Position numbers and translations under genes: made by a program. Shown here piece after piece: positions 7,561-32,000 of a DNA stretch of 32,000 nucleotides; the stretch's first letter is position 1; each line of letters begins with the position of its first letter. Source of the stretch: Cyclobacteriaceae bacterium (lineage in GTDB: Bacteria; Bacteroidota; Bacteroidia; Cytophagales; Cyclobacteriaceae); NCBI GenBank assembly GCA_016787755.1, contig JAEUUA010000009.1, positions 21,263 to 53,262 on the forward strand, read 5' to 3'. The notes under the pieces are model-generated. The model searched no databases, was not told where the DNA came from, and worked only from the letters and a program-made list of their open reading frames with translations.

Positions 7561-8082
7561 TTATCTTCCAAAATCATCCTGAAGTCTTACAATATCATTT
7601 TCATCTGACGGATTTTGGGCATCCGTATGTTGCCAGATTTCTGCCACCATTCCCCACCCATCACGCCCTACCAATCGATGACGCTGACCTTGTGCCAAAC
7701 GAACGATCTCTCCTGGTTTCATTTGCTGAACATCGCCTTGATCATCCGTTTTGCTAATGACAACACCCGAAGTACCCGCTACCAGTTTCCAGATTTCTGC
7801 GCGCCTGTGATGGTATTGCCACGATAGTCGCTTGTGGGGCTCAACCACTAATATTTTAGGACTAAGCTTATTGCTGATCTTGAGTGATTTAAAATCCACT
7901 TCACCAAAAAACTTCTTAGCAAACTTCTCTGCCTGATTTTCATCTAAAACAAAAAAACCGCCCCAGGGACGAGTAAAGTCTTTTGCCGCGATTGTGAAAC
8001 CTTCCTCCGCTAAATACTTGCTAATTGATTCGAATACAGATTCTCTGTTTCCTTTCAGCGACACCGATGTTATTTCATTCAT
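7561..8082 (-). CDS. Cupin-domain protein (mannose-6-phosphate isomerase type II C-terminal cupin-like)
   Basis: The core LSWQYHHRRAEIWKLVAGTSGV...PGEIVRLAQGQRHRL resembles the type II PMI cupin motif (SxQxHxxRxExW...G..HR). Confidence 0.65.
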   Translation of the reverse strand: MNEITSVSLKGNRESVFESISKYLAEEGFTIAAKDFTRPWGGFFVLDENQAEKFAKKFFGEVDFKSLKISNKLSPKILVVEPHKRLSWQYHHRRAEIWKLVAGTSGVVISKTDDQGDVQQMKPGEIVRLAQGQRHRLVGRDGWGMVAEIWQHTDAQNPSDENDIVRLQDDFGR

Positions 8083-8316
8083 GGTGGAAATTTAGATATA
8101 ACCATCCATACTAAAAACATCTTATTCTTTTTAAACCACAAAGGCACAAAGTCACCAAGTTGAACGAAGTAGAAAGTATGGTGAGGTGTTTTAACACCTT
8201 GCTTTTGCTTAAACCAAGTACTACATCAACTTATAAGATTTAATAAAGTTCCGAAGCACTTTTTATAAACGGATTGCGATTGCCTCTTAATTGATTTACT
8301 TTTCGCTTTCCATTTT

Positions 8317-9810: not shown

Positions 9811-11268
9811 ATGAATTCTGAACAAAACTTAGAACTAGCCCCCGGGTTAACGATTTCGCGCGTGCTTATAGGCTTATGGCAAATAGCCGACCTGGAACGC
9901 GATGGAAAAAAGATCAATTGGGAAGAAGCAGCACTCGCCATGAAACAATATTACGATGCAGGCCTATCCACGTTCGACATGGCTGATCATTACGGTTCAG
10001 CCGAAGACATAGCCGGGATTTTTCGCACAAAGTATGCGAATGGTAAGTCACACTTGTTTACCAAATGGGTTCCCACACCGGGACCCGTAAAAAAAGAAAG
10101 CGTTCGCGAGGCGGTTCAAAAATCGTTAACACGAATGCAATCCGAGCAAATCGATCTTATGCAATTTCATGCATGGAATTATGCAGACCCAACCTGGTTA
10201 GATTGTTTGTATTGGTTACAAGAATTAAAAGAAGAAGGACTAATAAATCATTTGGGACTGACAAATTTTGATACGGCACATTTGCGCATTGTCTTAACAA
10301 GTGGAATTAAAGTCGTTTCCAATCAAGTCTGCTATTCATTGATTGACCAACGAGCATCTCATGCTATGACGGAACTATGTCTCCAGCATAACATTAAGCT
10401 ATTAGCCTTTGGAACTATAGCAGGTGGCTTTCTTACAGATAAGTGGCTGAACAAACCTGAACCACAACAAGATCAATCACTCACATGGTCGCAAATGAAG
10501 TACAAACGCTTTATTGATGCTGCCGGAGGGTGGAATAAACTTCAAAATCTTCTAGCGGCTTTAAATCAGGTTGCTAAAAAACATACCACATCAATAGCAA
10601 ACATCGCCAGTCGCTATATGGTAGAGCAATCCGCTGTGGGCGGAGTAATTATAGGCGCCCGGCTTGGAATGAGTGAACACATTCAGGAAAATGTAAAACT
10701 GTTTTCATTTTCATTAGATACAGAAAGTAAAAAGAATATCAGGCAAGCCCTTGATTCTTTAAATACCATTCCGGGGGATTGTGGAGATGAATACCGCAAA
10801 CCCCCTTACTTAACCGCATCAGGCGATCTGAGCCATCATGTAGATACAATTCCACCTCCGTATCCTTCTTATGCTGGCAGTGATGGAAGAATAAAAGCAC
10901 TTAGCGGAACTGTGTGGGAAGACATTGCCGGGTTTAGTCGAGCAATAAAAAAAGGCAATCGCATTCTTGTGTCGGGCACAACGGCCACGCATGGCAAGAA
11001 CGCCATTGGCGGCAATGATCCGGCTGCACAAACCCATTTTGTAATTGATAAAATTGAAGGTGCCATCCAATCTCTAGGTGGTACGTTAAATGATGTTGTC
11101 CGCACCAGAATTTTTATTCGTAACATGAACGATTGGGAGGCGATTGCACTAGCCCATGGTGAACGATTTAAAACTATTCAGCCGGCAAACACCCTGGTAA
11201 AAGCCGAATTAATTGGCGATCAATACCTGATCGAAATGGAAGCGGAAGCAATTCTTGGTAATGGATAA
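9811..11268 (+). CDS. Aldo/keto reductase fused to a C-terminal RidA/YjgF-like domain
   Basis: Residues ~1-330 look like an AKR (FDMADHYGSAE, DLMQFHAWNY, GLTNFD, LLAFGTIAGGFLTDKW). Residues ~360-485 look like YjgF/RidA (ILVSGTTA...THFVIDKIEGAIQSLGGTLNDVVRTRIFIRNMNDWEAI...PANTLVKAELIGDQYLIEMEAEA). Confidence 0.8.
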   Translation: MNSEQNLELAPGLTISRVLIGLWQIADLERDGKKINWEEAALAMKQYYDAGLSTFDMADHYGSAEDIAGIFRTKYANGKSHLFTKWVPTPGPVKKESVREAVQKSLTRMQSEQIDLMQFHAWNYADPTWLDCLYWLQELKEEGLINHLGLTNFDTAHLRIVLTSGIKVVSNQVCYSLIDQRASHAMTELCLQHNIKLLAFGTIAGGFLTDKWLNKPEPQQDQSLTWSQMKYKRFIDAAGGWNKLQNLLAALNQVAKKHTTSIANIASRYMVEQSAVGGVIIGARLGMSEHIQENVKLFSFSLDTESKKNIRQALDSLNTIPGDCGDEYRKPPYLTASGDLSHHVDTIPPPYPSYAGSDGRIKALSGTVWEDIAGFSRAIKKGNRILVSGTTATHGKNAIGGNDPAAQTHFVIDKIEGAIQSLGGTLNDVVRTRIFIRNMNDWEAIALAHGERFKTIQPANTLVKAELIGDQYLIEMEAEAILGNG

Positions 11269-15886: not shown

Positions 15887-16049
15887 GGAGTTTCTAAATT
15901 TCAGGAAGATTGAAAAAATTGAGTTAAGATAAAAGAAGATTTAAGTTTACTTACGAGCGTTCATTGTTTGAAGGATTTAACTTAAAAAGTTGTGCGCTTA
16001 TTATCGGCAAAGTACTTTCGCACCTATACCATTAATCCAATCTGTTGCC

Positions 16050-17126
16050 ATGCAGAATTATTCCATTCAAGCTATAGTGGTAGCTACAGGTAGTTATATC
16101 CCGAAAGTAAAAATCAATAACTCCAATTTCCTCAATCATACCTTTTTTGAGAAGGATGGCTTGCCCATTAATAAAGACATTAAGACTATTGTTGAAAAGT
16201 TTAAATCCATAACGGGGATTGAAGACAGGTGTTATGCTTTGCCGGAACAGAAAGCTTCAGACCTTGGTTACCTGGCCGCTTTACAAGCATTCGAAAGTTC
16301 AGGTATTGATAAAGAAACTATTGATTATTTAATAGTAGCACACAACTTTGGTGACGTAGCGTATGATAGCAACCGTGTTGATATGGTGCCTACATTAGCT
16401 TCGCGGATAAAATATTTATTGCAAATAAAAAATCCGGATTGTGTTGCCTATGATCTTCCGTTTGGTTGTCCGGGTTGGTTGGAAGGAGTCATACAGGCAA
16501 ACTATTTCATCAAATCGGGAGACGCAACGCGATGCCTGGTGATAGGTGCTGAAACATTATCGCGCATCATTGATCCGCACGATCGAGACTCGATGATTTA
16601 TGCGGATGGAGCCGGAGCAGTAATTTTAGAAGGAAGAAACGGGCCACAAGGAATTCTAGCTCATAAAACTCAAACGTATGCCAGCGAGCATGCTCATTTA
16701 CTAAACATGGATTTCAGCTATGACACTCAGCACGACAACAGGGATCTTTATATAAAAATGAATGGCCGTAAGTTGTACGAGTTTGCCCTAACCTATGTTC
16801 CTCACGTGGTTAAGCTGGCACTCGACAAAGCCAACACGCATATTTCAGAGATCAGCAAAATACTGATCCATCAGGCCAACGAAAAAATGGACGAAGCCAT
16901 TGTACACCGGCTTTTTAAATTATATAACCTGGAATTTACCAACCCACAGATTATGCCCATGAGCATTTCATGGTTAGGAAACAGCTCGGTGGCCACCATC
17001 CCTACCCTGCTTGACCTTATGTTGAAAAAGAAAATGAAAGATCAGGAGATCCATCCGGGAGAGAAAATTGTTTTTGCTTCGGTCGGTGCCGGGATGAATA
17101 TCAATGCCGTTGTTTATCAGTTTTAA
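16050..17126 (+). CDS. 3-oxoacyl-ACP synthase III (KAS III, FabH-like)
   Basis: Cys-His-Asn catalytic context is present (DLPFGCPGW, LIHQANEKM, GNSSVATIP). The ATG at 16050 (MQNYSIQAIVVATGSYIPK) is preferred over the upstream TTG at 15990. Confidence 0.85.
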   Translation: MQNYSIQAIVVATGSYIPKVKINNSNFLNHTFFEKDGLPINKDIKTIVEKFKSITGIEDRCYALPEQKASDLGYLAALQAFESSGIDKETIDYLIVAHNFGDVAYDSNRVDMVPTLASRIKYLLQIKNPDCVAYDLPFGCPGWLEGVIQANYFIKSGDATRCLVIGAETLSRIIDPHDRDSMIYADGAGAVILEGRNGPQGILAHKTQTYASEHAHLLNMDFSYDTQHDNRDLYIKMNGRKLYEFALTYVPHVVKLALDKANTHISEISKILIHQANEKMDEAIVHRLFKLYNLEFTNPQIMPMSISWLGNSSVATIPTLLDLMLKKKMKDQEIHPGEKIVFASVGAGMNINAVVYQF

Positions 17127-17333
17127 TTGACTGAACCTCGAGGGCTGGTTCGAACCAATTAATCCCTAAATACCTCCGCTTTTAGCCGCCTACTGAAACT
17201 TTAAGTTGAAGAACGAGTTATAGCATAAACTCGATATTTCGAAATCTTAGCGATTATTAGAATAAAATGAAATGATTTTGGCAGGTAATATGTTTACTCT
17301 ACAACAAATTTTATAAAAAGGGAATTGCATCAA

Positions 17334-19062: not shown

Positions 19063-19626
19063 TCAAATAGCAAGAAAAATTAAAAATACCAACACGCTAA
19101 AAATAAACCCAAACATAAATACCTGATACGCATAGGCCAGCAAGTTGTATTTGCGTTTCAATATTTTGCCTTGATTGTGCAAATCAATGGTCATGTGTTC
19201 ATATAAATCTTCATCCGAGTCAAGCAAGGTTTTCATTTTCTCCAGATAATCCTGTTGGCTGTGAAGTGATATCACGCCAAAAAAAAGTAAACTTGATTTT
19301 TGCATTTCACCGCCTTCAGCTTTCGCCTGAATTAATTTAGGGCGTGCCGCCTGAATGGCAAAAATTACAGAGACCAGGCAGGAGAGAATGATCATTACGA
19401 TGGGAACCATCACACTGGCTTCATAGGTATCGATTTTACCGGCCACCGCACCGTACCCCGTAATGGCAATGATGGAAGAGATAATCATGGTGTTGATGCT
19501 GATAATGATGTTGGCCTTATTATCAGCCATTTGAATCAGGTTGCTTTGGTTTTGATAGGCAGAGCGAAACAAGGTTTCTCGTCCTCTGCCCGGTTTCTTC
19601 TTTTTCTTAGGTGGCTTTACTTCCAT
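19063..19626 (-). CDS. DUF5706 / PycTM-like (Pycsar-effector-family) two-TM membrane protein
   Basis: Lys-rich N-terminus, then MADNKANIIISINTMIISSII (the ADxKA motif), two TM helices and a C-terminal KRKYNLLAYAY + TM. This arrangement recalls the Pfam PycTM/DUF5706 family. The CDS call is strong. The family assignment is from memory. Confidence 0.55.
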   Translation of the reverse strand: MEVKPPKKKKKPGRGRETLFRSAYQNQSNLIQMADNKANIIISINTMIISSIIAITGYGAVAGKIDTYEASVMVPIVMIILSCLVSVIFAIQAARPKLIQAKAEGGEMQKSSLLFFGVISLHSQQDYLEKMKTLLDSDEDLYEHMTIDLHNQGKILKRKYNLLAYAYQVFMFGFIFSVLVFLIFLAI

Positions 19627-20614: not shown

Positions 20615-20676
20615 ATTATTAATGACGGTCAACAAATCATTGGTGACCCGTATTGATCACACTTAAAATAAAAATC

Positions 20677-21042
20677 ATGGACACCCTTGAAAACGACTCA
20701 ACGCAAAACATGAAGACACTTTCTGAATGCATAAATGATGCTGTTAAGAAAGGATATACTGAAAACTTTGAGATTTCAGGAAAGAAAATGATCACCGAAG
20801 ATAAAAAATCTTCGTTCACTCCTGAGAATACAGTTATTTCAGACTTTTTCAGGTTTGAAGGAAATTCCGATCCCCAAGACAATGCCGTTCTCTATCTTAT
20901 TGACACTAACGATGGAAAAAAAGGAATTCTCATTGATGCCTATGGCACCTATGCTGATGCAGATATTTCCAGTTTCATAGTCGAAGTGGAAGAAATCCAA
21001 AAGAAAACTCCTGTGGTGAGAAATCAAGGTTTAGTTTTTTAA
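20677..21042 (+). CDS. Conserved small protein of unknown function
   Basis: The blocks FRFEGNSDPQDNAVLYLIDTNDGKKGILIDAYGTYAD and FIVEVEEIQKK match a ~110-120-aa Bacteroidota family that I recall being mislabelled 'phosphoribosylpyrophosphate synthetase'. The ATG at 20677 is preferred to the TTG at 20653. Confidence 0.65.
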   Translation: MDTLENDSTQNMKTLSECINDAVKKGYTENFEISGKKMITEDKKSSFTPENTVISDFFRFEGNSDPQDNAVLYLIDTNDGKKGILIDAYGTYADADISSFIVEVEEIQKKTPVVRNQGLVF

Positions 21043-21487
21043 AAGACCAAAGACAGGCCTACTTCCAAACGGTGTCTCCTGCCTCGGTGACTCTTCGCAT
21101 TCCTGACTTATTTCTCTTTATCGTTTTACTTACTAAACTTATTATATAATTCACGCTTCATTTTATTCAGGGCTGTCTTTCACGTTACGCGGAGTCCCTC
21201 CTCGCGCTCATTCCATTACTCCTGGAGACTCCTCTAGGAAAGAGAAAACTCCTGTGGTGAGAAATCAAGGTTAGTTTTTTAAAAGACCAAAGACAGGCCT
21301 ACTTCCAAACGGTGTCTCCTGCCTCGGTGACTCTTCGCATTCCTGACTTATTTCTTTTTATCGCTTTACTTACTAAACTTATTTTATAATTCACTCTTCA
21401 TTTTATTCCGGGCTGTCTTTCACGTTACGCGGAGTCCCTCCTCACGCTCATTCCATTACTCCTGGAGACTCCGCTAGGAAAGAGAAA
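21003..21487 (+). repeat. Two-copy tandem duplication, period 241/240 bp
   Basis: Copy 1 is 21003-21243 and copy 2 is 21244-21487. By hand alignment they differ by 7 substitutions and one 1-nt indel. Copy 1 includes the last 13 codons and the stop of the preceding CDS. Confidence 0.9.
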
Positions 21488-21932
21488 GGGGTGAATCTCT
21501 CAAGATAATAGTTATCAAAGTTGAGTGCCATTATGTAACCTACTCACTTTACCAATAGGCAAGATTCATCACTGTTACTTTGCTTTGTACTTTTTTGCCG
21601 CCCGCATGCTCACGCACCCCGCCCTTCGTTCAAGCCATCGCTCTCATAATTCCAAACTAAGATTATATTATAAATCTATCCTAATTCTTGCGCCTTCGTT
21701 CTTGTTGGTCGCCTGACCACCATTTTCACACAATCTCTAAATATTCTGGCCATTTGAGATTGATCTATTGAGGCTGTCAAAGGTGCGGGCAAGGCGTCTT
21801 GACACCTAAGATTTATCAATACTCTTACGCCAGCTCACAGTTCGTCAAGCATTTGTTACAGGTGGTCAAAGATTCAAAAACGTGTCGAGTGTTTGTGCGT
21901 ATTTAACATCAAAAATAATTAAACACAAAACT

Positions 21933-22385
21933 ATGAAAACACTTAAAGTATTATCCGGAATTGCTTTGGTTGCCATGCTGGCTTCATTCGCACCCATTGG
22001 TGGCGATGGATTTACACTGCGCGTAAACAACAAATTGGTAATTGAACATTACTTTACCTCCAAAGCGGTAACACCTCACGTTTCGTTAGGTGTTTTTTCA
22101 AGCAAGGATGCTGTTTCAATATCCTATAGCGAATGTGGTACAGTTGGAAAAAACCGAAAGCTGGCATTGAAAGACCAGGCCGGCAATGTATTGAAAGAAT
22201 GGAAGTTCTCAGACACCGATGGTTTGAACTCTGGAATGGTCATTCCAGGAAGCGAGATTATGGCATTCAAAAAGACAGATCGTAAAACTTTTACTATTAC
22301 CTACACTTCCCAGGTAGTTTCTACGGGTCGGTTGCTAGCCGAACTTGTGTTAGAGAATGAAGCGCAAGTTACCAGCAAGAAATAA
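21933..22385 (+). CDS. Secreted hypothetical protein (~150 aa)
   Basis: The ATG at 21933 gives MKTLKVLSGIALVAMLASFA, a signal peptide, with a beta-rich remainder. I recognise no family. Confidence 0.6.
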   Translation: MKTLKVLSGIALVAMLASFAPIGGDGFTLRVNNKLVIEHYFTSKAVTPHVSLGVFSSKDAVSISYSECGTVGKNRKLALKDQAGNVLKEWKFSDTDGLNSGMVIPGSEIMAFKKTDRKTFTITYTSQVVSTGRLLAELVLENEAQVTSKK

Positions 22386-22400
22386 TAGTAAACCGGTTAG

Positions 22401-22432
22401 GTCGTCTGACCACTTGAAGTGGTCTTGACGAC
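22401..22432. repeat. 32-nt nested palindrome GTCGTCTGACCACTTGAAGTGGTCTTGACGAC (copy 1)
   Basis: Identical to 26901-26932. It lies 15 nt after the stop of the 21933..22385 CDS and could be a terminator or REP-like element. Confidence 0.85.
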
Positions 22433-22642
22433 TTGCCGGACTTGCTAGTCTGTCAATACCTTACTGCCAAACATTAAGTAAGAAGCTAATTCTTTTTTTC
22501 CACCCCCTGACCCCCGCCTGCGGGGGATAGTTTTAGACTATGGATGAATAGAAGTTATGGCGATTACCTTCTACACTTCTTCTGTCGAGTATCGTCTCCG
22601 CTTTCGGGATGATGCATGACACTTGACGACTTGCTGGTTTTG

Positions 22643-23623
22643 CTATTTGGCTGCTTTAAATTTTACGACTGAATTTGAAAGCGGGGTTACCGTTTTTAGG
22701 TACGCATAAATTGCTTCAAGATCTTCGGACTTCATTTGTCCGTACATTGTCCAGGGCATTATCGTATTGAATTCACCAACTGCAACTGGCTCGACAACAT
22801 ACGTAGAATCGGCATACGCTTTAAACCGCTGAACAAATAATTCTTTGGTCCAGGAGCCAATTCCGGTTTCTTTATCTGGAGTGATATTAGCTGATGTTAC
22901 TACCGATCCATCCGGAAACTGAAACTCGCGGCCCCCGCCAAACCTGACTTCAGGAATAATTCGTCCTTTGTCTACTTGCGTATGACACTCCACACATCCG
23001 GCTGCATTGGTAAGATAAGCACCATAGGCCAGCAGATCCGTTTTTGGCGGCAGTGTGCCATTTGCTGCTTTCTGTGGAATCGTATTAAGGATGAAGTTCA
23101 TGGGAAAGTCAGGCCTGGAATCGGGTACTGCATTTTCCCTGGCCGGAATAGAACGTACGTATGAAATAATACTGTAGATATCTTCTTTGTCCATACGGCC
23201 ATAGTATGGATAGGGCATCAGTGGAAACATGGCGCGGCCTTCTTTTGTAACTCCGGTTGTAATCACCCGAAATAATTCACCATCTGTGTAGCGCTGAATT
23301 CCTGCAGGCGTAATATTCCTGGCATAAAACACTCCGGGCAAACCCATACTTTGATCGAACACATCACCCCCCATACCCAACGTACCTTCCGTTAAGGGTC
23401 CTGAAAACTTTGACCAATCACGTTTTGAATGACAGTCCATACACACTGTAACCGTATGGGCAAGGTAACGGCCACGTTCTATCCGTTCTGTAGTGTAATC
23501 AATCTTAAGGTCTTCGGGTTCGCCCACATTGGGGAGCGCGAGTTTTACATAACTGAGCACCCCCGCTAATACCAGCAGGACAAATGCAAGCAGATATCCG
23601 ACATACTTCAGGATAGTTTTCAT
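22643..23623 (-). CDS. Membrane-anchored di-haem c-type cytochrome
   Basis: Two CxxCH motifs (CMDCH, CVECH) and an N-terminal TM anchor, MKTILKYVGYLLAFVLLVLAGVL. Confidence 0.85.
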   Translation of the reverse strand: MKTILKYVGYLLAFVLLVLAGVLSYVKLALPNVGEPEDLKIDYTTERIERGRYLAHTVTVCMDCHSKRDWSKFSGPLTEGTLGMGGDVFDQSMGLPGVFYARNITPAGIQRYTDGELFRVITTGVTKEGRAMFPLMPYPYYGRMDKEDIYSIISYVRSIPARENAVPDSRPDFPMNFILNTIPQKAANGTLPPKTDLLAYGAYLTNAAGCVECHTQVDKGRIIPEVRFGGGREFQFPDGSVVTSANITPDKETGIGSWTKELFVQRFKAYADSTYVVEPVAVGEFNTIMPWTMYGQMKSEDLEAIYAYLKTVTPLSNSVVKFKAAK

Positions 23624-23711
23624 AATGAGGGTTTAAGTTTTTGAGATGACTAAGATAGTAAAAAGCGAAATTATTTGCTAAAGGAAGTATTCCGTAGTGC
23701 ATAACTCACTG

Positions 23712-24305
23712 CCCCTGCCCGTGTTGGTGTTCTTTACCAACACGTTTCTTATAACCTCCAATAAGAAAGCCGTTCTGTTTGGGGGATCCTTCTCCGCCAG
23801 CTGGCGGATAAGGATTGGACCAAAGTTGGGGGGTTCTTCCCTACTCTTTGGTGCGTGACTCACGAAACACTTTTATTAAATCACTAACCGTAGATTCCAA
23901 GTCGCGCTAAAAATTGAAACGCAATCCTGAGCGGCCAGCTTGTCATTCGTATAGGATGCTTGCATGAAGACATAGCCTAATAGTTGACCGAAGTATACTA
24001 GAGCGAAGGATCCCCAATAAGAAAGCCGTTACCTGTTTGGGGGATCCTTCTCCGCCAGCTGGCGGATCAGGATTGGACTAAGGTTGGGGGGTTCTTCCCC
24101 GTGGGTATACAAAAAATTGGAACGCAATCCTGAGCGGCCAGCTTGTGCCATCGTATATCATGCTTGCATGAAGACATAACCTAATAGTTGACCGAAGTAT
24201 ACTAGAGTGAAGGATCCCCAATAGGAAAGCCGTTGCCTGTTTGGGGATCCTTCTCCGCCAGCTGGCGATCAGGATTGGAATAAGGTTAGGGAACTTCTGC
24301 AATCG
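23712..24305 (+). repeat. Mosaic repeat array R1 (module a, then two b modules with d linkers)
   Basis: The a head CTGCCCGTGTTGGTG is at 23715. The b heads ATTG(A/G)AACGCAATCCTGAGCGGCCAGC are at 23913 and 24116. The sequence is near-identical to modules at 25.66-26.9 kb. Confidence 0.9.
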
Positions 24306-24444
24306 ATTATACTTCCGTGGTTCGGGTTATCAACAACCACTACCATTAAAATGATAATTTAACTACTGAGATGTTATAATAGAAGGCATGGATTCCTATG
24401 GGGCATCATCCTTCGCTTTGATTGTTTCATAAATAATCCAATAC

Positions 24445-25104
24445 CTAATTATAATTTCCCTGATCTGGTGTATAATGACTTTTATAAAAAAGGGTTGGCT
24501 CCATCAGAAAATATTGGTTGTTATATTTTTTTAAAAACTTACCAGCACTCACACTGAAAATTCCGCTCGACCAGGTGGCATCACACACATACGATTTTCC
24601 GTTAAGTTGAATAACATTCCATGAATGATTGACAGTGCCCAGAACGCTCCGATCAATACCAGTAGGTTTTGCATACCCATTCACAACCACGCACGTAAGC
24701 CCGGCATGAAATGCTAATTCCCGCACCAGGTAGGCGTAGCCGGTACAAATAGTTTTTCGCTCCTGAAGGAGCGTTTCAAAAACCATCTTGTTGAAGGTTT
24801 TATTCCAATAGGTGAGCTCTTCTCCTTTCAGGGTGGATCTATTCTTTTTATTAAGGATAAGTAGTTCATAGTCAGCCTCAATATTGCTGCACACCCATTT
24901 ATAGATCGCACGAAATTTTTCCTGATCCGTTGGCAGCGAGCTTGTTAATTTGTCGGATAAGGTTTTTATATCTATTAACGAGTGTGCAGCATAGCGATCT
25001 GCTATACTGTCTGCATCATGGAAATTCGTAGTCCTAAAATCACTGACTTGACCACGGACTGAGAAACAGTAAAAGACAAACAATATAAACCAGAAACGCT
25101 TCAT
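24445..25104 (-). CDS. Secreted transglutaminase-like (papain-fold) protein
   Basis: Signal peptide, with a Cys-His-Asp context typical of the transglutaminase-like core (CTGYAYLVRELAFHAG, VNHSWNVIQL, YVCDATWS). Confidence 0.8.
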   Translation of the reverse strand: MKRFWFILFVFYCFSVRGQVSDFRTTNFHDADSIADRYAAHSLIDIKTLSDKLTSSLPTDQEKFRAIYKWVCSNIEADYELLILNKKNRSTLKGEELTYWNKTFNKMVFETLLQERKTICTGYAYLVRELAFHAGLTCVVVNGYAKPTGIDRSVLGTVNHSWNVIQLNGKSYVCDATWSSGIFSVSAGKFLKKYNNQYFLMEPTLFYKSHYTPDQGNYN

Positions 25105-25120
25105 GGTACAAATTCACTCT

Positions 25121-25570
25121 CTAATTGTCAACCTTACCTTTGCGTACTTTTTTAAGTGGAACAGCCACTGTGGTGTTCTTGTTGCCTTCAACCAGTATTT
25201 CGTCAACCATTTGAATGGGATCAACTTCCATCGTAATCTCAATAAAGGCCACTGGCTGTTCAGGCACTGTGTATTCAATTGTTTTTAGTCCTAAAAAACT
25301 AAAGACTAGTACATCCCCACTTTTCACAGGACGTGGAAACGTAAACTCACCCTGGGCATCCGAAAAGGTACCTATTGATGAAAGGCTTTTCAGGTAGATG
25401 TTAGCTCCCGATACCGGCTGAAGATCATCAAAGTATTTTACTGTCCCGCGAATACCCTGGGTAGTTTGTGCGAATACATTGGCACTTAGGAAGGCCACGA
25501 ACAAAATTGCGAGAGCAGTTTTTACTGCATGTTGGCCAACAGGACTGTTGTTTTCATGTATTGTTTTCAT
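25121..25570 (-). CDS. Secreted stand-alone carboxypeptidase-regulatory-like (CarboxypepD_reg) domain protein
   Basis: Signal peptide ending in NVFAQ, then IRGTVKYFDDLQPVSGANIYLKSLSSIGTFSDAQGEFTF...GDVLVFSFLGLKT, as in the N-terminal extension of SusC-type receptors. It ends 16 nt upstream of the transglutaminase-like gene. Confidence 0.7.
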   Translation of the reverse strand: MKTIHENNSPVGQHAVKTALAILFVAFLSANVFAQTTQGIRGTVKYFDDLQPVSGANIYLKSLSSIGTFSDAQGEFTFPRPVKSGDVLVFSFLGLKTIEYTVPEQPVAFIEITMEVDPIQMVDEILVEGNKNTTVAVPLKKVRKGKVDN

Positions 25571-25654
25571 AAGAATAGTTGGTTAAGTTTCTTGTGTGAT
25601 GCAGGTGCTGGAAGAATTCCATAACTCATCGATAATTCTTTTAAAAGTATTTCA

Positions 25655-26900
25655 AGCCTCTGCCCGTGTTGGTGTGGCCCTGCCTATGTTGGTGTTCTTC
25701 ACCAACACGTTTCTTATAACCTCCAATAAGAAAGCCGTTCTGTTGGGGGGATTCTTCCCCGTGGGTATACAAAAAATTGAAACGCAATCCTGAGCGGCCA
25801 GCTTGTGCCATTCGTATAGGATGCTTGCATGAAGACATAACCCAATAGTTGACCGAAGTATACTAGAGCGAAGGATCTCCAATAAGAAAGCAGTCTTCTG
25901 TTTGGGGGGATCCTTCTCCGCCAGCTGGCGGATCAGGATTGGAGCAAGGTTAGGGAGATCCTTCGCTTCGTGGTTTCCTTCCAAAGAGAACAACTCTTCT
26001 ATAGATTCAACTGCTGACGAAACCCATTCATGGTTCGCACTGGATTGGACCAAGGTTGGGGGATTCTTCCCCCGTGGGTATACCCTGCCCGTGTTGGTGT
26101 TCTTCACCAACACGTTTCTTATAACCTCCAATAAGAAAGCCGTTCTGTTGGGGGGATTCTTCCCCGTGGGTATTCAATAAATTGGAACGCAATCCTGAGC
26201 GGCCAGCTTGTGCCATCGTATAGGATGCTTGCATGAAGACATAACCTAATAGTTGACCGAAGTATACTAGAGCGAAGGATCCCCAATAAGAAAGCAGTCT
26301 TCTGTTTGGGGGGATCCTTCTCCGCCAGCTGGCGGATCAGGATTGGAGCAAGGTTAGGGAGATCCTTCGCTTCGTGGTTTCCTTCCGAAGAGAACAATGC
26401 TTCTATAGATTCAACTGCTAACGAAACCCATTCATGGGTTCGCTCAGGATTGGACTAAGGTTGGGGGGGTTCTGCGATCGGTGACCCCTGCCCGTGTTGG
26501 TGTTCTTCACCAAAACGTTTCTTATAACCTCCAATAAGAAAGCCGTTCTGTTGGGGGGATTTTCCCCGTGGGTATACAAAAAATTGAAACGCAATCCTGA
26601 GCGGCCAGCTTGTGCCATTCGTATAGGATGCTTGCATGAAGACATAACCCAATAGTTGACCGAAGTATACTAGAGCGAAGGATCCCCTAATAAGAAAGCA
26701 GTCTTCTGTTTGGGGGGATCCTTCTCCGCCAGCTGGCGGATCAGGATTGGAGCAAGGTTAGGGAGATCCTTCGCTTCGTGGTTTCCTTCCGAAGAGAACA
26801 ACTCTTTTATAGATTCAACTGCTAATGAAACCCATTCATGGGTTCGCTCAGGATTGGACTAAGGTTGGGAGCTTCTGCGATCGGTGACAACGAAGGCAAA
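25655..26900 (+). repeat. Mosaic repeat array R2: three tandem composite units (a-b-c-d)
   Basis: Unit heads CTGCCCGTGTTGGTG are at 25660, 26085 and 26488, with spacing 425 and 403. The b heads are at 25776, 26181 and 26583. The c modules are at 25955-26050, 26359-26455 and 26763-26859. Confidence 0.95.
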
Positions 26901-26932
26901 AGTCGTCTGACCACTTGAAGTGGTCTTGACGA
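26901..26932. repeat. 32-nt nested palindrome GTCGTCTGACCACTTGAAGTGGTCTTGACGAC (copy 2)
   Basis: Identical to 22401-22432. It lies 14 nt beyond the stop of the minus-strand CDS 26947..27651. Confidence 0.85.
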
Positions 26933-26946
26933 CTAGCCAGGATTAC

Positions 26947-27651
26947 TTACTCCAACGGCAAAAATCCAAAGGGGATGACAGATGCTTTTTGCATGGTGGC
27001 ACGTGTGCTTGGTGGGGATATGATCGGTTGCGTTTGTAGCGAAGCCTGATACGCTGCTACCAATTGATCGCGCGCTTCATCATTAAACGTTACTACCACC
27101 TGCTGATGGCCCAACGCTTTTAGCAAACTCTCAAGATATTCTTTCCCCTCGGCTTCGGCCTGAATTAAAATGCGATTCGATTCGGCTAACTGACGAGCCG
27201 TGTCCATGCGCGAAGCAATCGTTTTGCCGAGGTAGTCACTCACGGTAGGATATAAATCTTTGCCCACATGAACTTGCACGGATCTCGTTTCACGAATCAC
27301 CATACGGTTGGTATGATACACCGGTTCGTTTAACTCAGCCCGAGGCAAGATTACGGTGCGCAGCGAATCGTTTTGCCAAACTAACTCAACGTCTTTTAAA
27401 TTTAAGAAGGCTGTAATGGTAACGGGCACTTGCACCATCGCGCGGATGGCTTTTGCCGGGTTGTTGTTCTTATGGATAAAAAACAAATCGGTGTACGTAT
27501 GTTTCACCAAATGCAATTCGCGGATGGAAAGTATTTGCTCCAACGTAAGTTGCTGGGGCGATTGGGACGGAGTAATGCGGCCGTAAAAGAATCCGCCTAT
27601 GAACGCGGCTACAATCAGGCCAATAGAAAGGATGGGAATGATCTTTTTCAT
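26947..27651 (-). CDS. DUF4230-like membrane-anchored protein
   Basis: N-terminal TM (IPILSIGLIVAAFIGGFFYG). The pattern ELHLVKHTYTDLFF...VQVPVTITAFLNLKDVEL...RTVILPRAELNEPV resembles DUF4230. The family call is from memory. Confidence 0.55.
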   Translation of the reverse strand: MKKIIPILSIGLIVAAFIGGFFYGRITPSQSPQQLTLEQILSIRELHLVKHTYTDLFFIHKNNNPAKAIRAMVQVPVTITAFLNLKDVELVWQNDSLRTVILPRAELNEPVYHTNRMVIRETRSVQVHVGKDLYPTVSDYLGKTIASRMDTARQLAESNRILIQAEAEGKEYLESLLKALGHQQVVVTFNDEARDQLVAAYQASLQTQPIISPPSTRATMQKASVIPFGFLPLE

Positions 27652-27839: not shown

Positions 27840-28565
27840 TCATCGCACGTTGGGTTTGGTGAAACGAATCTGATAGGTGGCCCGTGTGGCTTCGCTGTTA
27901 TGGCCAAACGTTGCCCGTACTTGCTGGCGCACAGCACGCGCAATGGCAATCAAACTGTTCTCGTTTGTGTAGAGCAATTCATTGCGATCTCTGCGGGCTT
28001 TGCCCCAGGCCACCACGGCATTCAACACGGCTGCATTGATTGCACGCAACTCGCTCAGTGTAGTTTGTAAACTAGGTACTTGCAAGTCGGTGATGCCCGG
28101 TTGATAGCGGGGCTCGGCTGCCAAAGTTTGAATCAACTTCTGGAAGTGATACACCACGCTGCTGTAGTCGGAGCCATAGGTGCGCTTGCGCGTTACCTCA
28201 ACGGCAACTTCGTTGGCTGTTGATGCCACCGGTGCGCGATCTTTTAACACTTGCCCGCGAATCTTGCGCACCGCCACATACGCATCGGCCAGGGTTTGGG
28301 GCAACACCTGTGACGACCGCAGTTCAAACACAATACGCGAAACGAGTTTCTTCAAATTGATGTAGGCCACCTCGCGTTTGTTGGTGGCATTCTCTAACTC
28401 AGTTTTAGCTGTACTTACTTGCCGCACTGCCTCCCGACTGTTGGCCAATAACTCAGTTAAACTTTCCATGCGGAGATTGGGCTTACCGGGATTGTATGAT
28501 CCTCCGTATCCGGTGCAGATGCCTACGAGCTTCCCGAAGGCTTCTACATTTTTTAAGTTGGACAT
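27840..28565 (-). CDS. Hypothetical protein, predicted all-alpha, no recognisable family
   Basis: 241-aa ORF with clean coding-like composition and no competing ORF. G+C is noticeably higher than in neighbouring genes. Confidence 0.7.
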   Translation of the reverse strand: MSNLKNVEAFGKLVGICTGYGGSYNPGKPNLRMESLTELLANSREAVRQVSTAKTELENATNKREVAYINLKKLVSRIVFELRSSQVLPQTLADAYVAVRKIRGQVLKDRAPVASTANEVAVEVTRKRTYGSDYSSVVYHFQKLIQTLAAEPRYQPGITDLQVPSLQTTLSELRAINAAVLNAVVAWGKARRDRNELLYTNENSLIAIARAVRQQVRATFGHNSEATRATYQIRFTKPNVR

Positions 28566-28599
28566 AAAATAAATTGTTATGTTATACTTACATGCAACG

Positions 28600-28608
28600 C
28601 AAAGTGTA
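28600..28608 (-). promoter_or_regulatory. Candidate Bacteroidota -7 promoter box for the 27840..28565 gene
   Basis: The minus strand reads TACACTTTG (TAnnTTTG with one extra leading base), about 35 nt upstream of the ATG at 28565. This is a motif match only. Confidence 0.25.
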
Positions 28609-28725
28609 CTTATCTATGTTGCGCTTTAGTATCACTATTTTAAAAACTATTTAGTTGATGATAAGGACAACTACCTTGACGGTGTTGCGTTCTTAAGCGG
28701 CTGCTTAATAAACAGCACTGATCGT

Positions 28726-29025
28726 ATTGATACACTGCGCTACTACACGTGACGTACTGGATTTGCACATAGGTACACTACTCCCCTACAATGATACACT
28801 AGAATTATATATAGGTACACTGCTTCACTACATGTGGCACACAAGAATTATGCATAGGTACACTGCTCTACTACTCCTGACACTCAAGAATTATACATAG
28901 GTACACGGCTCTACTACACCCGCCATACAAGAAATATATATAGGTACACGGCTTCACTACACCCAACACACAAGAATTACACATAGGTGCACTGCCACAC
29001 TACACCTGGCGCACCGCTGCTTTTC
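28726..29025 (+). repeat. Seven-unit tandem repeat, period 42-43 bp
   Basis: Units start at 28726, 28769, 28811, 28854, 28897, 28940 and 28983. The conserved core is ATAGGTACAC(T/G)GCT(C/T)(C/T)ACTAC, followed by a more variable ~10 nt and then CAAGAATTAT. Confidence 0.9.
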
Positions 29026-29029
29026 TGGT

Positions 29030-29335
29030 GGTGCGTGACTCACGTGAGGACACAGACCAAGAAGAAAGGGAATACAATAAATTGAAACGCAATCCTGATC
29101 CGCCAGTTGGCGGAGAAGGATCCCCAATAAGAAAGCGAGATCCTTCGCTCCGTGGTATCCTTTCGAAGAAAAAACTCTTCTTTAGATTCAACTACTAACG
29201 AAACCCATTCATGATTCACTCAGGATTGGAATAAGATTAGGGAGATCCTTCGCTCAATGGTTTCCGAAGAGAACAACTCTTCTATAGATTCAACTGCTAA
29301 CGAAACCCATTCATGGTTCGCTCAGGATTGGACCA
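29030..29335 (+). repeat. Mosaic repeat array R3 (GGTGCGTGACTCACG motif, truncated b, two tandem c modules)
   Basis: The b head is at 29081, fused directly to an inverted copy of the b tail (CAATCCTGATCCGCCAGTTGGCGGAGAAGGATCCCC). The c modules are at 29137-29230 and 29242-29333. Confidence 0.9.
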
Positions 29336-29581
29336 CCGAACTAAGGCAAAACCACCTTTATTAAAAACGTTTTTGCAAACCATCATTGCCCATGGTTGGT
29401 GTTTTCACCAACCAATACACATAGCGGATCGGTGATAACACCGACCTAAGGCAAAAATTCTTTTCGAGTTTATCTTGCTTGCCCGGAATGACAGGTAATT
29501 ATTGACGCAACACTACATACCGAAGCTGTCATCGCGGGCGAGGCACGAGACCCGCTATCTCATATTATTTTCGTAGGGAAT

Positions 29582-29836
29582 AAAAAAATTGAAACGCAAT
29601 CCTGAGCGGCCAGCTTGTGCCATTCGTAATGATGCTTGCATGAAGATGTAACCTAGTCTAGTTGATCGAATTGTATTCTAGCGAAGGATCCCCTAAAGCA
29701 GAAGGTCGTTCTGTTGGGAGAATTCTCATTGAATGCTTGCATGAAGACACAACCTAATCGTTGACCGAAGCATACTGTAGCGAAGGATCCCCTGAATCAG
29801 AAGGCTGTTATCTGTTGGGGAGATCCTTCGCTCTCA
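29582..29836 (+). repeat. Mosaic repeat array R4 (divergent b module with internal duplication)
   Basis: The b head is at 29588. The ATGCTTGCATGAAGA...CGAAGGATCCCCT...CTGTTGGG block is present twice. Confidence 0.85.
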
Positions 29837-30235
29837 GTCAGTATTTTACTTTACGCACTAACTTCATCGGCAATCAATCTGCATCCAGCTTTCTTTCTTC
29901 GTTCTTTTTGTCTTAACCACAAAAAGAACCAAAAAAGTCAAGGCCGAAAAATGCTTCCCCCCTCATGCTAACACGCCACCCCGCTTTTCGGCCGGGCCAA
30001 CGCTCTTACGTTTTCAAACTTCAATTATGTAAATTATTTAGTTAGGAATTGTTGGGTCTGTTATCTCTTGCTGACTGCGAACGAATAGTAATAAATTATA
30101 ACATGTTATAATCCAAAGCACTCAACCTATCCCCCGCTGGCGGGGGTTGGGGGGTGCCTACGTTATTGTTGGGTCGCCTGACCAACAATCTAAATTCTTC
30201 AAACCTCGATTCGTATCTGCACAAAGCAAATTCAA

Positions 30236-30358
30236 TAAGTTGAAACACAATCCTGAGCGGCCAGCTTGTACCATTTGTATGATGCTTGAATGAAGACACA
30301 ACCTAATCGTTGGCCGAAGTATACCAGAGCGAAGGATCCCCGATAAGAAAGCCGTTAA
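30236..30358 (+). repeat. Mosaic repeat R5 (divergent, truncated b module)
   Basis: GTTGAAACACAATCCTGAGCGGCCAGCTTGTACCATTTGTATGATGCTTGAATGAAGACACAACC...CGAAGGATCCCCGATAAGAAAGCCGTT. Confidence 0.85.
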
Positions 30359-30665
30359 CACCCGCAGGCAAAAAGAAGAACGTCTATTTTTCTGGTGGCC
30401 TGCTCACTTTTATAACCATTCCCATTTTTTCGAACAACCGTTGTTGGTTGCGGCTGCGCGCAGGACGTTTGGTATCTGGTTCCTTTTGTTCCTCCTTTTT
30501 GCTTGCCGGATTTTCGTTTTCTGTTTTCATAGCATTATTTTTTAGTAACCCAATGGACGAGTTATTCACTCATTTTGATTTTGGGGCATTGAATATACTA
30601 CAAAATTTAACATGTTGGCAGAGGGCAAAAAGCGGTGCGGTGATAACACCGACCGGAGGCAAAAA

Positions 30666-31400
30666 TTACCCCATCCATTTCATAATCAACGAAAATAGAA
30701 CGGACAGCATAGGTATAATCATAAAGTAGCTCAGTCGCTTTGTTTTTGAATCCACATTTTTACTCTTCCTCAGAATCAACATTGAGTACGTCATAAATAC
30801 TAAAAAAGTAATTCCACTAAAGCTTGAGATGTAAAGATTTTCCGAGTAAAATGAGGTAAACATAAGTACCACCCCTACTAGTGCAATTGGAAGTTGAAAG
30901 GTTTGCCATAATGAAGTAGAAGTTTTTATAGTTAAGGATTTAATGCCACTTAATAATGTCTCAAGCTCCTCTTTGCGCTCAATCGCTGGTGAAACCCCGA
31001 TTGCATTCATCTTGCTATCACCAAGTATCGTCAAGGCTCCATTTTTACTTTTGATTATTTCCTGAACGTCTTTTATTAAAATTGTAATAGTGGGGGTATG
31101 CAGCATCTCTCTGCTAATGCTGTCTTCGCTAATAATTAGTTTATAGCTGGCCAGCATAGCCTTTTGCTTCTTTAGTGCATTCAAAAGTGAAAAGGTCAAA
31201 ACTCCTATCATCAAAATGATCGTAAATAATGTGCTCGTGCCCGTAATTGAACTGTTACCCGCATCCCCATTAAAAAAGAAAGGAACAATAAAGACAACGA
31301 GTATAACGATTATAAAGAGATACAGCATTCTTTTAATGATATTCATTTTTAATGCTTTAAACCCCTCCGGGTTAACTTTAAACTCTTGTGTACTAATCAT
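30666..31400 (-). CDS. Hypothetical integral membrane protein (2 TM, a soluble ~90-aa domain, then 2-3 TM)
   Basis: 244-aa ORF with clear hydrophobic segments. It is very AT-rich (a sampled line gives ~27% G+C). I recognise no family. Confidence 0.65.
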   Translation of the reverse strand: MISTQEFKVNPEGFKALKMNIIKRMLYLFIIVILVVFIVPFFFNGDAGNSSITGTSTLFTIILMIGVLTFSLLNALKKQKAMLASYKLIISEDSISREMLHTPTITILIKDVQEIIKSKNGALTILGDSKMNAIGVSPAIERKEELETLLSGIKSLTIKTSTSLWQTFQLPIALVGVVLMFTSFYSENLYISSFSGITFLVFMTYSMLILRKSKNVDSKTKRLSYFMIIPMLSVLFSLIMKWMG

Positions 31401-31630
31401 AAGTGAGAAGAAAATATTGCTTAAGATTCACCTATTTGGTTTTACTTTTCTAACATAAAGTACAACTACTACCACAATAATTATAGGAGCGAGAAATAAA
31501 AGGAGTTGTGTTATCATATAAATTTTATAGGGTTAGACCGGCTGTAAATCAAATTTCTAATATTTTTTTGTGTTTTCTACCAACTCATATACTCCCAGTT
31601 CTTGTATTCCTGTTCAATTATATAAAGTCT

Positions 31631-31985
31631 TCTGCGTTCGGTGATAACACCGACCGCAGGCAGAAGGGAGATCCTTCGCTCTATGGTTTCCGAAGAGAAC
31701 AACTCTTCTATAGATTCAACTGCTGACGAAACCCATTCATGGTTCGCTCTGGATTGGACCAAGGTTGGGGGATTCTTCCCCCGTGGGTATACAAAAAATT
31801 GGAACGCAATCCTGAGCGGCCAGCTTGTGCCATTCGTATAGGATGCTTGCATGAAGACATAACCTAATAGTTGACCGAAGTATACTAGAGCGAAGGATCC
31901 CCTAATAAGAAATCCGTTATCGGTTGGGGAGATCCTTCGCTCTTTACTCTGCTTAAGAAGAGAACTTCGCTGTGTAGATTTTATT
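31631..31985 (+). repeat. Mosaic repeat array R6 (CGGTGATAACACCGACC motif, c, d, b, degenerate c); may continue past the window end
   Basis: The c module is at 31668-31759 and the b head at 31798. The sequence is near-identical to the R2 modules. Confidence 0.9.
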
Positions 31986-32000
31986 TTTTAACCAGACCCA

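Follow-up and report, generated by a model that had tools for sequence, protein, structure and literature searches.

A stretch of 32,000 nucleotides from contig JAEUUA010000009.1 of a Cyclobacteriaceae bacterium (positions 21,263 to 53,262 of the forward strand; hereafter, the window) contains at positions 25655-26900 a block of tandem repeats assembled from a non-coding element of ~212 to 224 nt, designated E. The block is best explained as a DNA-level palindromic mosaic repeat and not as a gene. Beside it, on the − strand, lie a DUF4230 gene (26947-27651), which is 83 to 95% identical in close relatives and is the conserved anchor of the locus, and a fast-evolving gene for an all-helical protein of 241 amino acids (aa) (27840-28565), which is always paired with the DUF4230 gene and has a 43-bp × 6.5 tandem array upstream of it (28731-29008; Tandem Repeats Finder, TRF). 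E or fragments of E, as mapped by blastn and nhmmer with the unit modules, fill six intergenic gaps between 23.7 and 32 kb, all on the + strand, and the genes neighbouring them are nearly all on the − strand. The same programs detected no E modules in positions 1-23700. The remainder of the window is ordinary chromosome, with the C terminus of GroEL, peptide transporters, GH20, cysteine synthase and an orphan PycTM-like gene. Orthologous loci of 20 kb, referred to by L numbers, were fetched through DUF4230 homologues 95, 87, 84, 83, 80, 66 and 63% identical to that of the window.

The 404-bp array and the anatomy of element E

The array at 25678-26888 was resolved by TRF into 3.0 copies of a 404-bp period with 94% matches and 1% indels (score, 2174). 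The original prediction, made from the letters of the sequence, had described three tandem units of ~400 bp with heads at 25660, 26085 and 26488. Three units were indeed found, but the sequence at 25660-25677 is an extra partial a-head, CTGCCCGTGTTGGTGTGG, lying ahead of unit 1 on the + strand (sequence and alignment A5, a direct alignment of the three units), and the head of unit 1 proper is the variant CTGCCTATGTTGGTG at 25681. Unit 1 spans 25678-26082 (TRF, A5 and the blastn map), unit 2, which served as the reference, 26083-26485 (A5 and the blastn map), and unit 3 26486-26888 (TRF and A5), the last being extended to 26900 by a 12-nt tail or terminal linker, CTTCTGCGATCGGTGACAACGAAGGCAAAA; all are on the + strand. 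The units are 94 to 97% alike, bearing out the proposal of a recent amplification.

All five hairpins described in the first reading were recovered in each unit: the a-head hairpin GTGTTGGTG-TTCTT-CACCAACAC (25685-25709, 26090-26114 and 26493-26517), TTTCTTAT/ATAAGAAA (25710-25733, 26115-26138 and 26518-26541), the central hairpin GAAGGATCCCC/GGGGATCCTTC (25868-25916, 26272-26320 and 26675-26724) and the two c hairpins, GAAGAG/CTCTTC (25983-25999, 26387-26403 and 26791-26807) and CGAAACCCAT/ATGGGTTCG (26017-26037, 26421-26442 and 26825-26846). The remaining parts of unit 2, all on the + strand, are a degenerate hairpin arm (26151-26162), the E 5′ arm (26190-26201), the invariant ATGCTTGCATGAAGA (26225-26239), a short-form 3′ end directly after the central hairpin (26321-26346), a second hairpin 3′ arm forming the head of c (26357-26368) and the E 3′ arm (26441-26452). 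Unit 1 runs in the order a-head hairpin, a-tail, short-form E (b(i)), 5′-truncated E (c) and linker; its 3′ arm is mutated to GCACTGGATTGG, and its linker is of the a-tail type.

The earlier description of each unit as a string of four modules, a to d, was accurate but incomplete, as a single older element is split into modules b and c, its two halves, and its hairpin arm has degenerate copies in module d and the tail of module a. In related genomes, b runs straight into c, giving the ~212- to 224-nt non-coding element E, in which the 5′ arm is followed by a ~75-nt domain, the central hairpin, a ~70-nt domain and the 3′ arm. The 12-nt terminal arms are inverted, CAATCC[T/A]GAGCG and CGCTC[A/T]GGATTG, and the near-invariant central hairpin has 13 to 14 bp, (A)GCGAAGGATCCCC and GGGGAGATCCTTCGC, around a loop of 9 to 25 nt; the two inner domains of ~70 nt each are replaceable. 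Modules b and c are exactly complementary in sequence at their outer ends, CAATCCTGAGCG (5′ end of b) and CGCTCAGGATTG (3′ end of c). When the 9-mer core of the arm was compared across the window and the three loci without b and c (L018, L007 and L009), no further sites were found in the window and none in those three loci.

Alignment of the array unit with canonical E (A7) identified an insertion of ~49 nt at the 3′ arm of the central hairpin, containing a duplicated arm, a short-form 3′ end, TCCGCCAGCTGGCGGATCAGGATTGG, and a linker. From this anatomy, it follows that the 404-bp unit is composed of an a-head hairpin, a degenerate hairpin arm, a short-form E and a 5′-truncated E. The unit is not the free-standing four-module entity of the original prediction but a rearranged derivative of the ~215-nt E joined to a separate a-head. 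The a-head (GTTGGTG-N5-CACCAAC) belongs to a separate and more widely scattered family resembling repetitive extragenic palindromic (REP) elements and is also present 9 to 10 kb from the locus in L007.

The array was confirmed to be non-coding. Its open reading frames (ORFs; 40 to 160 aa) occur on both strands and follow the repeat, and frame-shifting indels are present between units; these indels, together with stop codons in distant copies, excluded a coding remnant. The 159-aa ORF of the array had no Pfam match. When the repeat-borne ORFs were searched against 5.8 billion clustered proteins and, exhaustively with HMMER, against 1.84 billion representatives, the only matches were two ORFs of the source metagenome-assembled genome (MAG), 'hypothetical proteins' JNM78_06085 and JNM78_06110, on the same 77-kb contig. 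An insertion sequence (IS) or other coding mobile element was rejected, the array ORFs having neither a Pfam match nor homologues beyond the source MAG, and no transposase, integrase or REP-associated tyrosine transposase (RAYT) was found in the window and no Y1_Tnp/RAYT domain in the gene tables of the 20-kb loci. A CRISPR array, in which identical repeats of 24 to 48 bp alternate with unique spacers of similar length, was rejected on the basis of the 404-bp period, the repetition of the whole unit and the absence of unique spacers, so that the initial view of the block as neither CRISPR nor IS was upheld. No Rfam match at the gathering score was obtained for the window and six related loci; Rfam 15 at an expectation value of ≤10 gave 0 matches for positions 23600-27000, and Rfam at ≤1 gave noise alone for 28500-32000. 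No tRNA or tmRNA relics were found in the window. Full-text literature searches on Bacteroidetes intergenic mosaic repeats and DUF4230 returned no description of the element. E is a new, previously undescribed repeat family of a familiar general class and not a demonstrated RNA gene.

The other E-derived sequences of the window, all on the + strand, are mosaics. A second cluster (23713-24304; TRF and blastn) occupies the gap between the cytochrome c and transglutaminase genes and contains an a-head, a short-form 3′ end, a module termed e and two short-form E copies (23907-24080 and 24110-24282; TRF period, 204). At 29068-29335, an E 5′ arm is fused to a CCGCCAGTTGGCGG palindrome and hairpin, followed by two tandem c units, which correspond to the 3′ half of E. 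An E 5′ half with an internal duplication (29575-29835) is joined right after the central hairpin to an unrelated module, g (29835-30035), and another 5′ half (30226-30360) ends inside the loop of the central hairpin. The last sequence (31647-32000) comprises a c unit (31665-31759), an a-tail and, from 31804 onwards, a nearly full-length E with a c2-type 3′ domain, as in L021, that is cut by the end of the window.

Distribution, conservation and folding of E

Canonical E of 212 to 224 nt was found in L001, L004, L012, L007, L009, L019 and L021/L023; the lineages of Cyclobacteriaceae/Ohtaekwangia-like MAGs that carry the element number six or more. An E profile searched with nhmmer detected full or partial copies in all lineages except that of L018, a short contig. 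Every such match lies no more than ~6 kb from the pair of genes for the 238- to 241-aa protein and DUF4230, with none elsewhere in ~225 kb of non-redundant sequence, and every locus covering both flanks has the 238- to 241-aa gene followed by the DUF4230 gene. Upstream of this anchor is a variable, defence-rich region (Shedu SduA_C, GmrSD, type I restriction-modification, McrBC-like, UvrD/WYL and ParE), and downstream is a variable gap; E is antisense to the anchor genes in all lineages but L019. An exact 26-mer from module b was also scanned genome-wide in one genome per species across 185,579 species. Three stretches were returned, in two MAGs (an uncultured Cytophagales and an Ohtaekwangia sp.), and all three are the same syntenic neighbourhood as that of the window. 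In the DNA sampled, E was restricted to this neighbourhood; as a property of the family, locus restriction has good support in two genomes for the b subfamily and is no more than suggested for the others. Scans with conserved two-block patterns, two of viral contigs and two of metagenome contigs, gave 0 matches, the metagenome result being a weak negative since L004, a JGI contig that matches the first of the patterns, was not returned. A BLAST search of the 404-bp unit against plasmids and phages gave no matches.

The conservation of E was compared with a neutral yardstick. Between the window/L004 lineage and L007/L009, identity at the fourfold-degenerate sites of the DUF4230 gene is 0.49 to 0.56, close to saturation, whereas the arms and central hairpin of E are ~95 to 100% conserved across lineages. 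The inner domains cannot be aligned between subfamilies, although the length and order of the parts are kept even in L007, L009 and L019. Since ~55 nt of E are near-invariant while neutral sites are near saturation, these nucleotides are either under selection or repeatedly homogenised, and the interiors are free to change. Confinement to one locus without conservation in relatives, which would have pointed to a neutral local amplification, was not what was found, because E is conserved in relatives whose neutral sites are saturated. A block of amplified junk, with its apparent conservation due to recent horizontal exchange of the island among relatives, would fit the extreme rarity of the family in public data, the many fragmentary copies and the presence of several other large intergenic tandem repeats in these genomes. 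Uniform transfer would not, however, be expected to yield conservation in blocks, with arms and hairpin retained and interiors replaced amid saturated neutral sites, nor the maintenance of part length and order around interiors that cannot be aligned, and we regard this explanation as very unlikely.

The original prediction had offered a functional RNA as one option. In the corresponding explanation, E would be a small structured or antisense RNA gene transcribed from the + strand, antisense to the local genes, and the array a tandem battery of three such genes, each copy being ended by the a-head of the next unit. All window copies are co-oriented on the + strand, on which the a-head hairpin with TTTCTTAT behind it also has a terminator-like score. 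A gene on the same strand stands directly upstream of E in L009 and L021, so that E would be co-transcribed with it, and the unpaired 15-mer ATGCTTGCATGAAGA is almost invariant among b-type copies. Single units also fold clearly better than shuffled controls (z = −3.0 to −4.3); this was true of both strands, about equally, as is expected of any palindrome-rich DNA.

Covariation did not support an RNA fold. Alignment A3 (ten E copies from six lineages) contains 25 helix pairs, 17 of which never vary, and 96% of helix cells pair; its covariation score of 0.068, compared with 0.055 for shuffles, was reached by 59 of 500 shuffles, and 59 to 67 of 500 did as well for the two conserved helices. The single A3 pair that seems compensatory is T-A in the window clade and A-T in L007/L009 but is mismatched in L001 and L019 (UA in 4 copies, AU in 3 and other combinations in 3). 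RNAalifold detected 0 compensated pairs in the b domain across 19 copies, distant ones included (consensus, −6.5 kcal/mol), and no significant covariation was detected by RNAalifold and pair counting on alignments A2, A3 and A6. Covariation was thus no higher than in controls, and the helices are kept as sequence. Independent folds of the six lineages had nothing in common beyond two helices, the inner domains having been swapped wholesale between lineages. One-sided changes in the terminal helix, 5 G.U versus 3 A.C on the E strand, lean towards an RNA in direction and are not informative in number; a census of wobble asymmetry with a fuzzy arm pattern was too noisy, as short arms match random sequence. 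No Bacteroidota −7 box (TAnnTTTG) was found ahead of any E copy, and a sigma-70 scan before E gave no more matches than shuffles. Many copies have been truncated to halves, E is turned the other way with respect to the gene pair in L019, and, as noted above, Rfam gave no match. An RNA fold for E is, therefore, not supported, and an RNA gene is an unlikely account of the array. The retention of both arms as sequence, and not as mere complementarity, is the outcome expected of sequence-specific recognition. As both arms of both inverted repeats are strictly conserved without covariation, the ~55 conserved nucleotides are most likely read as sequence by a putative DNA-binding or DNA-cleaving protein, and not merely folded.

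Rearrangement at E and comparison with known elements

The 5′ halves of E include the central hairpin; immediately behind GATCCTTC(GCTCT), they change to a c domain, a c2 domain, a short-form palindrome, the unrelated module g (window 29835; L004 11915) or other sequence. Half-elements start or end at this same motif in the window, L001, L004 and L012, and 3′ halves, the c units, start at the hairpin arm GGGAGATCCTTCGCT (25953, 26357, 26761, 29135, 29240 and 31666). The junctions between mosaic parts are concentrated at the 3′ base of this hairpin.

Strain-level differences were associated with the same position. On one side of a point inside E, L023 and L021 have 99.9% identity and, on the other, 93 to 95%, with divergence beginning exactly behind ...GGGGATC of the hairpin 3′ arm. 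An additional ~1.9 kb with an EamA gene is present in L023 between direct repeats of ~250 nt, each comprising ~125 nt of flank followed by the b domain and central hairpin and ending exactly at the 3′ arm of the hairpin. The transglutaminase-like and CarbopepD_reg genes of the window (24445-25570), which lie between two E arrays, are missing from the 95%-identical L004, where the same gap contains c'-c-b...b and other repeats. Cassettes enclosed by E copies were also seen in L012, with a zeta-toxin pair, and in L021, with a ParE pair. E copies are sites of rearrangement of this neighbourhood; the crossovers may be due to homologous recombination between long repeats, to template switching provoked by the hairpin or to a site-specific reaction.

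These observations bear on a recombination site similar to integron attC, at which a putative recombinase would move cassettes of one or two genes, with the array as a set of 'empty' sites. As in chromosomal integrons and in clusters of attC sites lacking an integrase (CALIN), the E copies are imperfect palindromes that share one orientation, keep to one locus and lie between small cassettes, toxin-antitoxin pairs (ParE and zeta) among them, with conserved outer arms, a variable interior and turnover of cassettes between strains. At the base of the central hairpin, breakpoints agree to within a few nucleotides, and E halves bracket a cassette that is present in one strain and absent from another. 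E differs from attC in length (212 to 224 versus 57 to 141 nt), in its conserved central hairpin and in the absence of R″/R′ cores (RYYYAAC/GTTRRRY). No integrase or other tyrosine or serine recombinase is encoded in any locus, although E copies separate small cassettes, and many gaps have several E pieces together with other repeat families, not one site per cassette. The L021/L023 repeats reach 125 nt past E, fitting homologous recombination, and the constant neighbours are not recombinase-like: the helical protein has no fold match, and the DUF4230 gene product has its DUF4230 domain and a sub-threshold SpoIIIAH-like match but nothing else. An attC-like site seems a remote prospect on this evidence. 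The classical integron attC was rejected as an identity for E, the arms of which read GTCCAATCC...GGATTGCG in gene sense, without GTTRRRY cores and in an element of 212 to 224 nt. An inverton, in which inverted repeats flank a promoter-bearing segment of ~100 to 750 bp that occurs in both orientations, was also rejected: inverted repeats ~200 bp apart are present, though there is no TAnnTTTG promoter inside E and no invertase nearby. The orientation of the E interior relative to leader and trailer is constant in ~20 b-type copies.

A non-autonomous transposable element, either a MITE (miniature inverted-repeat transposable element) or PATE/REPIN-like, was also considered; it would be moved in trans by a transposase encoded elsewhere that recognises the 12-bp terminal inverted repeats and central hairpin. 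Bacterial MITEs of the Correia/ERIC type have terminal inverted repeats, lengths of 100 to 400 bp, intergenic locations and subfamilies that share ends (PMC3184786), and E resembles them in all of these respects. Its 12-bp terminal inverted repeats are perfect or nearly so, its length is conserved at 212 to 224 nt, and both arms are kept in sequence, as transposase-binding sites would be. Subfamilies have common ends with unrelated interiors and are discordant with the host phylogeny, the distant L021 sharing the b domain of the window (~85%, an estimate by eye) and the closer L007 and L009 carrying interiors that differ from it. However, no target-site duplication was present at any copy when the flanks of 10 full-length copies were inspected, copies are confined to one neighbourhood and not scattered, and no transposase, Y1/HUH or RAYT gene, and no partner IS, was found in the ~225 kb of surroundings. 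The recent window copies arose by tandem duplication and not insertion, and the scattered a-head belongs to another sequence family. Transposition of E in trans is, on balance, improbable.

By analogy, E appears to work most like two groups of intergenic mosaic repeats, the NIMEs (Neisseria intergenic mosaic elements) and the bacterial interspersed mosaic elements (BIMEs) of enterobacteria, and is a member of none of the systems compared, to which it has no sequence similarity. The first reading had found no known REP or BIME type; this held with respect to homology but not to kind, as E resembles BIME, NIME and BOX repeats, all of them intergenic mosaic palindromic repeats. NIMEs consist of RS units bounded by dRS3 inverted repeats and number in the hundreds genome-wide. 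In both NIMEs and E, modules of ~50 to 150 bp with short conserved inverted repeats at their borders are shuffled between genes, act as recombination substrates and are tied to variable regions. In contrast to NIMEs, with which it has no sequence similarity, E has a defined full form of ~215 nt with an invariant central hairpin and occurs in one neighbourhood, and no integrating phage or IS110-type enzyme is linked to it here. The BOX elements of Streptococcus pneumoniae, boxA-boxB(n)-boxC, are short and dispersed in ~100 or more copies. Like E, they are intergenic and modular, contain internal modules that vary in number and are predicted to form strong secondary structure, whereas E forms tandemly amplified composite units of 404 bp in a family limited to one island.

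REPs are 20 to 40 bp long, number >100 per genome, have alternating orientations within BIMEs and are accompanied by a RAYT gene; their proposed roles, with those of BIMEs, are in termination, mRNA stability and protein binding (PMC2817692, PMC3733652). Like these, E is made of extragenic palindromes in composite mosaics with sequence-conserved hairpins. At 212 to 224 nt, and with its 26-mer at one neighbourhood in two MAGs, E does not have the size or copy number of a REP, to which the a-head alone is similar, and it has none of the GTAG/CGTC tags described in PMC3733652. Nor does it have the arrangement of a BIME, since its few copies at one locus are co-oriented and no RAYT/Y1 domain is encoded in the window or the loci.

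The reading we favour, which we put at about an even chance of being correct, is that the array is the latest product of unequal crossover or slippage in an island-specific BIME/NIME-like repeat, the arms and hairpin of which are read by a protein and the copies of which promote the gain and loss of cassettes. The lineage-restricted ~215-nt E would be the building block of the array, and copies and half-copies would accumulate in the gaps of one variable island beside the genes for the 241-aa protein and DUF4230. Breakage or template switching would occur preferentially at the central hairpin, and E copies would recombine with each other because of the long identical stretches common to them and this preferred break point. 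Such recombination could generate mosaic half-elements and the deletion or insertion of intervening cassettes of one or two genes, while unequal crossing-over between co-oriented copies could generate tandem arrays. The 3 × 404-bp array, the unit of which joins an a-head, a short-form E and a 5′-truncated E, would be the most recent product. We infer recombination as the amplifying mechanism and recognition of the conserved blocks by a protein.

Several points weigh against this reading. The main gap is that no recombinase, transposase or RAYT was found in the window or in any 20-kb locus, which also counts against both of the mobile-element explanations, MITE and attC-like site. The L021/L023 indel is explained by ordinary RecA recombination, because 250 nt of homology bracket it, and requires no special property of E. 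The ~85% likeness of the b domain between the window and L021, set against 63% identity of DUF4230, could reflect horizontal spread rather than constraint. A sequence-specific role as an RNA, for which covariation is not needed, is conceivable. Finally, the restriction to one neighbourhood rests on loci fetched through their own anchor gene and on one exact-match scan.

Neighbouring genes, other repeats and significance

The 241-aa protein of the window is 36% identical to that of L009, in which DUF4230 is 83% identical. Neither the 241-aa protein nor DUF4230 had informative matches in Pfam, NCBIfam or PADLOC. AlphaFold models the 241-aa protein (pLDDT, 82.9) as a bundle made entirely of helices, with residues 107-131 in a disordered loop; the model had no Foldseek match at an expectation value of ≤1e-3 in PDB or BFVD. 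The protein has a conserved N-terminal motif, GxCTGYGGxYxPGxPNL, and invariant residues R64, R100, R194 and Y199. In every lineage, a tandem array with a period of 42 to 44 bp and 6.5 to 8.7 copies is located 150 to 250 bp upstream of the 238- to 241-aa gene (window 28731-29008; L012 8572-8947; L009 8631-8948; L007 8595-8976; L019 8667-8960; L021 8668-9042). These arrays often have a half period of 21 to 22 bp, and their sequences are unrelated between lineages. The protein and the upstream array look like a co-evolving pair, with an array of iteron- or centromere-like type. A bolder proposal, which we consider very doubtful, is that E is the recombination site of a putative cassette-exchange system of Cyclobacteriaceae/Ohtaekwangia-like Bacteroidota for which the 241-aa protein and DUF4230 serve as machinery or control. 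The crossover point would then be the base of the central hairpin, the locus would be an integron-like capture platform beside a defence island without homology to integrons, and the 42- to 44-bp array would turn over in step with the protein. The significance of E would be much greater if it were the site of such a dedicated system.

Module g is a ~190-nt non-coding sequence (window 29835-30035; L004 11671-11920; L001 6824-7073; L018 1780-1910; L019 7008-7143) that is conserved across lineages, including the distant L019 (82% identity), without an Rfam match. RNAalifold identified 7 pairs with compensatory changes in it, for example, GGCCGAAAA/TTTTCGGCC versus GGCAAAAGG/CCCTTTTGCC, and its loops contain other palindromic inserts in L001 and L004. 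Module g is possibly a small structured RNA.

Further small repeats surround the E copies. A palindromic hairpin, GTCGTCTGACCACTTGAAGTGGTCTTGACGAC (26902-26933), separates the array from the stop codon of the DUF4230 gene; a second copy is at 22401-22432, and others lie behind the DUF4230 stop codon in L004 (~10715-10750) and L018 (~1605-1640). In the window, it directly follows the stop codons of the ORF at 21882-22385 and of DUF4230, in the same + orientation after genes on opposite strands, and it may be a bidirectional terminator or another repeat family. All lineages contain a module, CCACCCCC-T(T/G/A)ACCCCCGCC(W)GCGGGGGATAG, that often adjoins E and holds a G+C-rich 6-bp hairpin scoring as terminator-like (window 22497-22530 and, inverted, 30120-30150; L004 ~10830-10860; L007 10770-10800 and 11000-11030; L012 11040 and 11590; L021/L023 in the E 5′ flank). 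Within a 42-nt repeat, D18, lies a third family of small hairpins, CGGTGATAACACCG(ACC) (window 29430-29450, 30638-30655 and 31639-31655), which partly overlaps the array linker d (CGATCGGTGAC). Another module, TTCCGTGGTTCGTGAC.CACGAA.CACTTTT.TTAAATCACTAA...GGTCGCGC, was found in L004 (11174-11638 and 12278-12412), where it forms a 198-bp × 2.3 tandem, and in the window (23850-23906); it stands immediately ahead of E in several copies, and its partner module on the gene-sense strand carries a TACTTTTG motif matching the Bacteroidota −7 box.

Larger tandem repeats were also observed. In the window, 240 bp × 2 (21002-21487; 96% identity) overlaps the 3′ end of the ORF at 20653-21042. In L007, 452 bp × 2 (7647-8542) contains the E copies of that locus. 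In L004, 255 bp × 5 (15903-17167; 95% identity) adjoins the PycTM gene and has a 69 to 71% identical relative in L012. The PycTM gene (Pycsar effector-like, with two transmembrane segments) is syntenic (window 19063-19626, − strand; L004 17320-17883; L012 15496-16056). No adjacent cyclase gene was visible beside it in the window, and it may be an orphan or remnant defence effector.

For genome annotation, E accounts for a group of spurious 'hypothetical proteins' in these MAGs and is probably responsible for breaks in assembly. Its conservation in blocks without covariation points to a putative sequence-specific DNA-binding or DNA-nicking factor in poorly studied soil Bacteroidota. If the favoured reading of the array is true, E would be a natural example of a palindromic repeat family that keeps one chromosomal neighbourhood fluid, in which a few conserved nucleotides mark both the turnover of cassettes (toxin-antitoxin pairs, a transporter and small secreted proteins) beside a defence island and the places where the DNA expands into tandem arrays.

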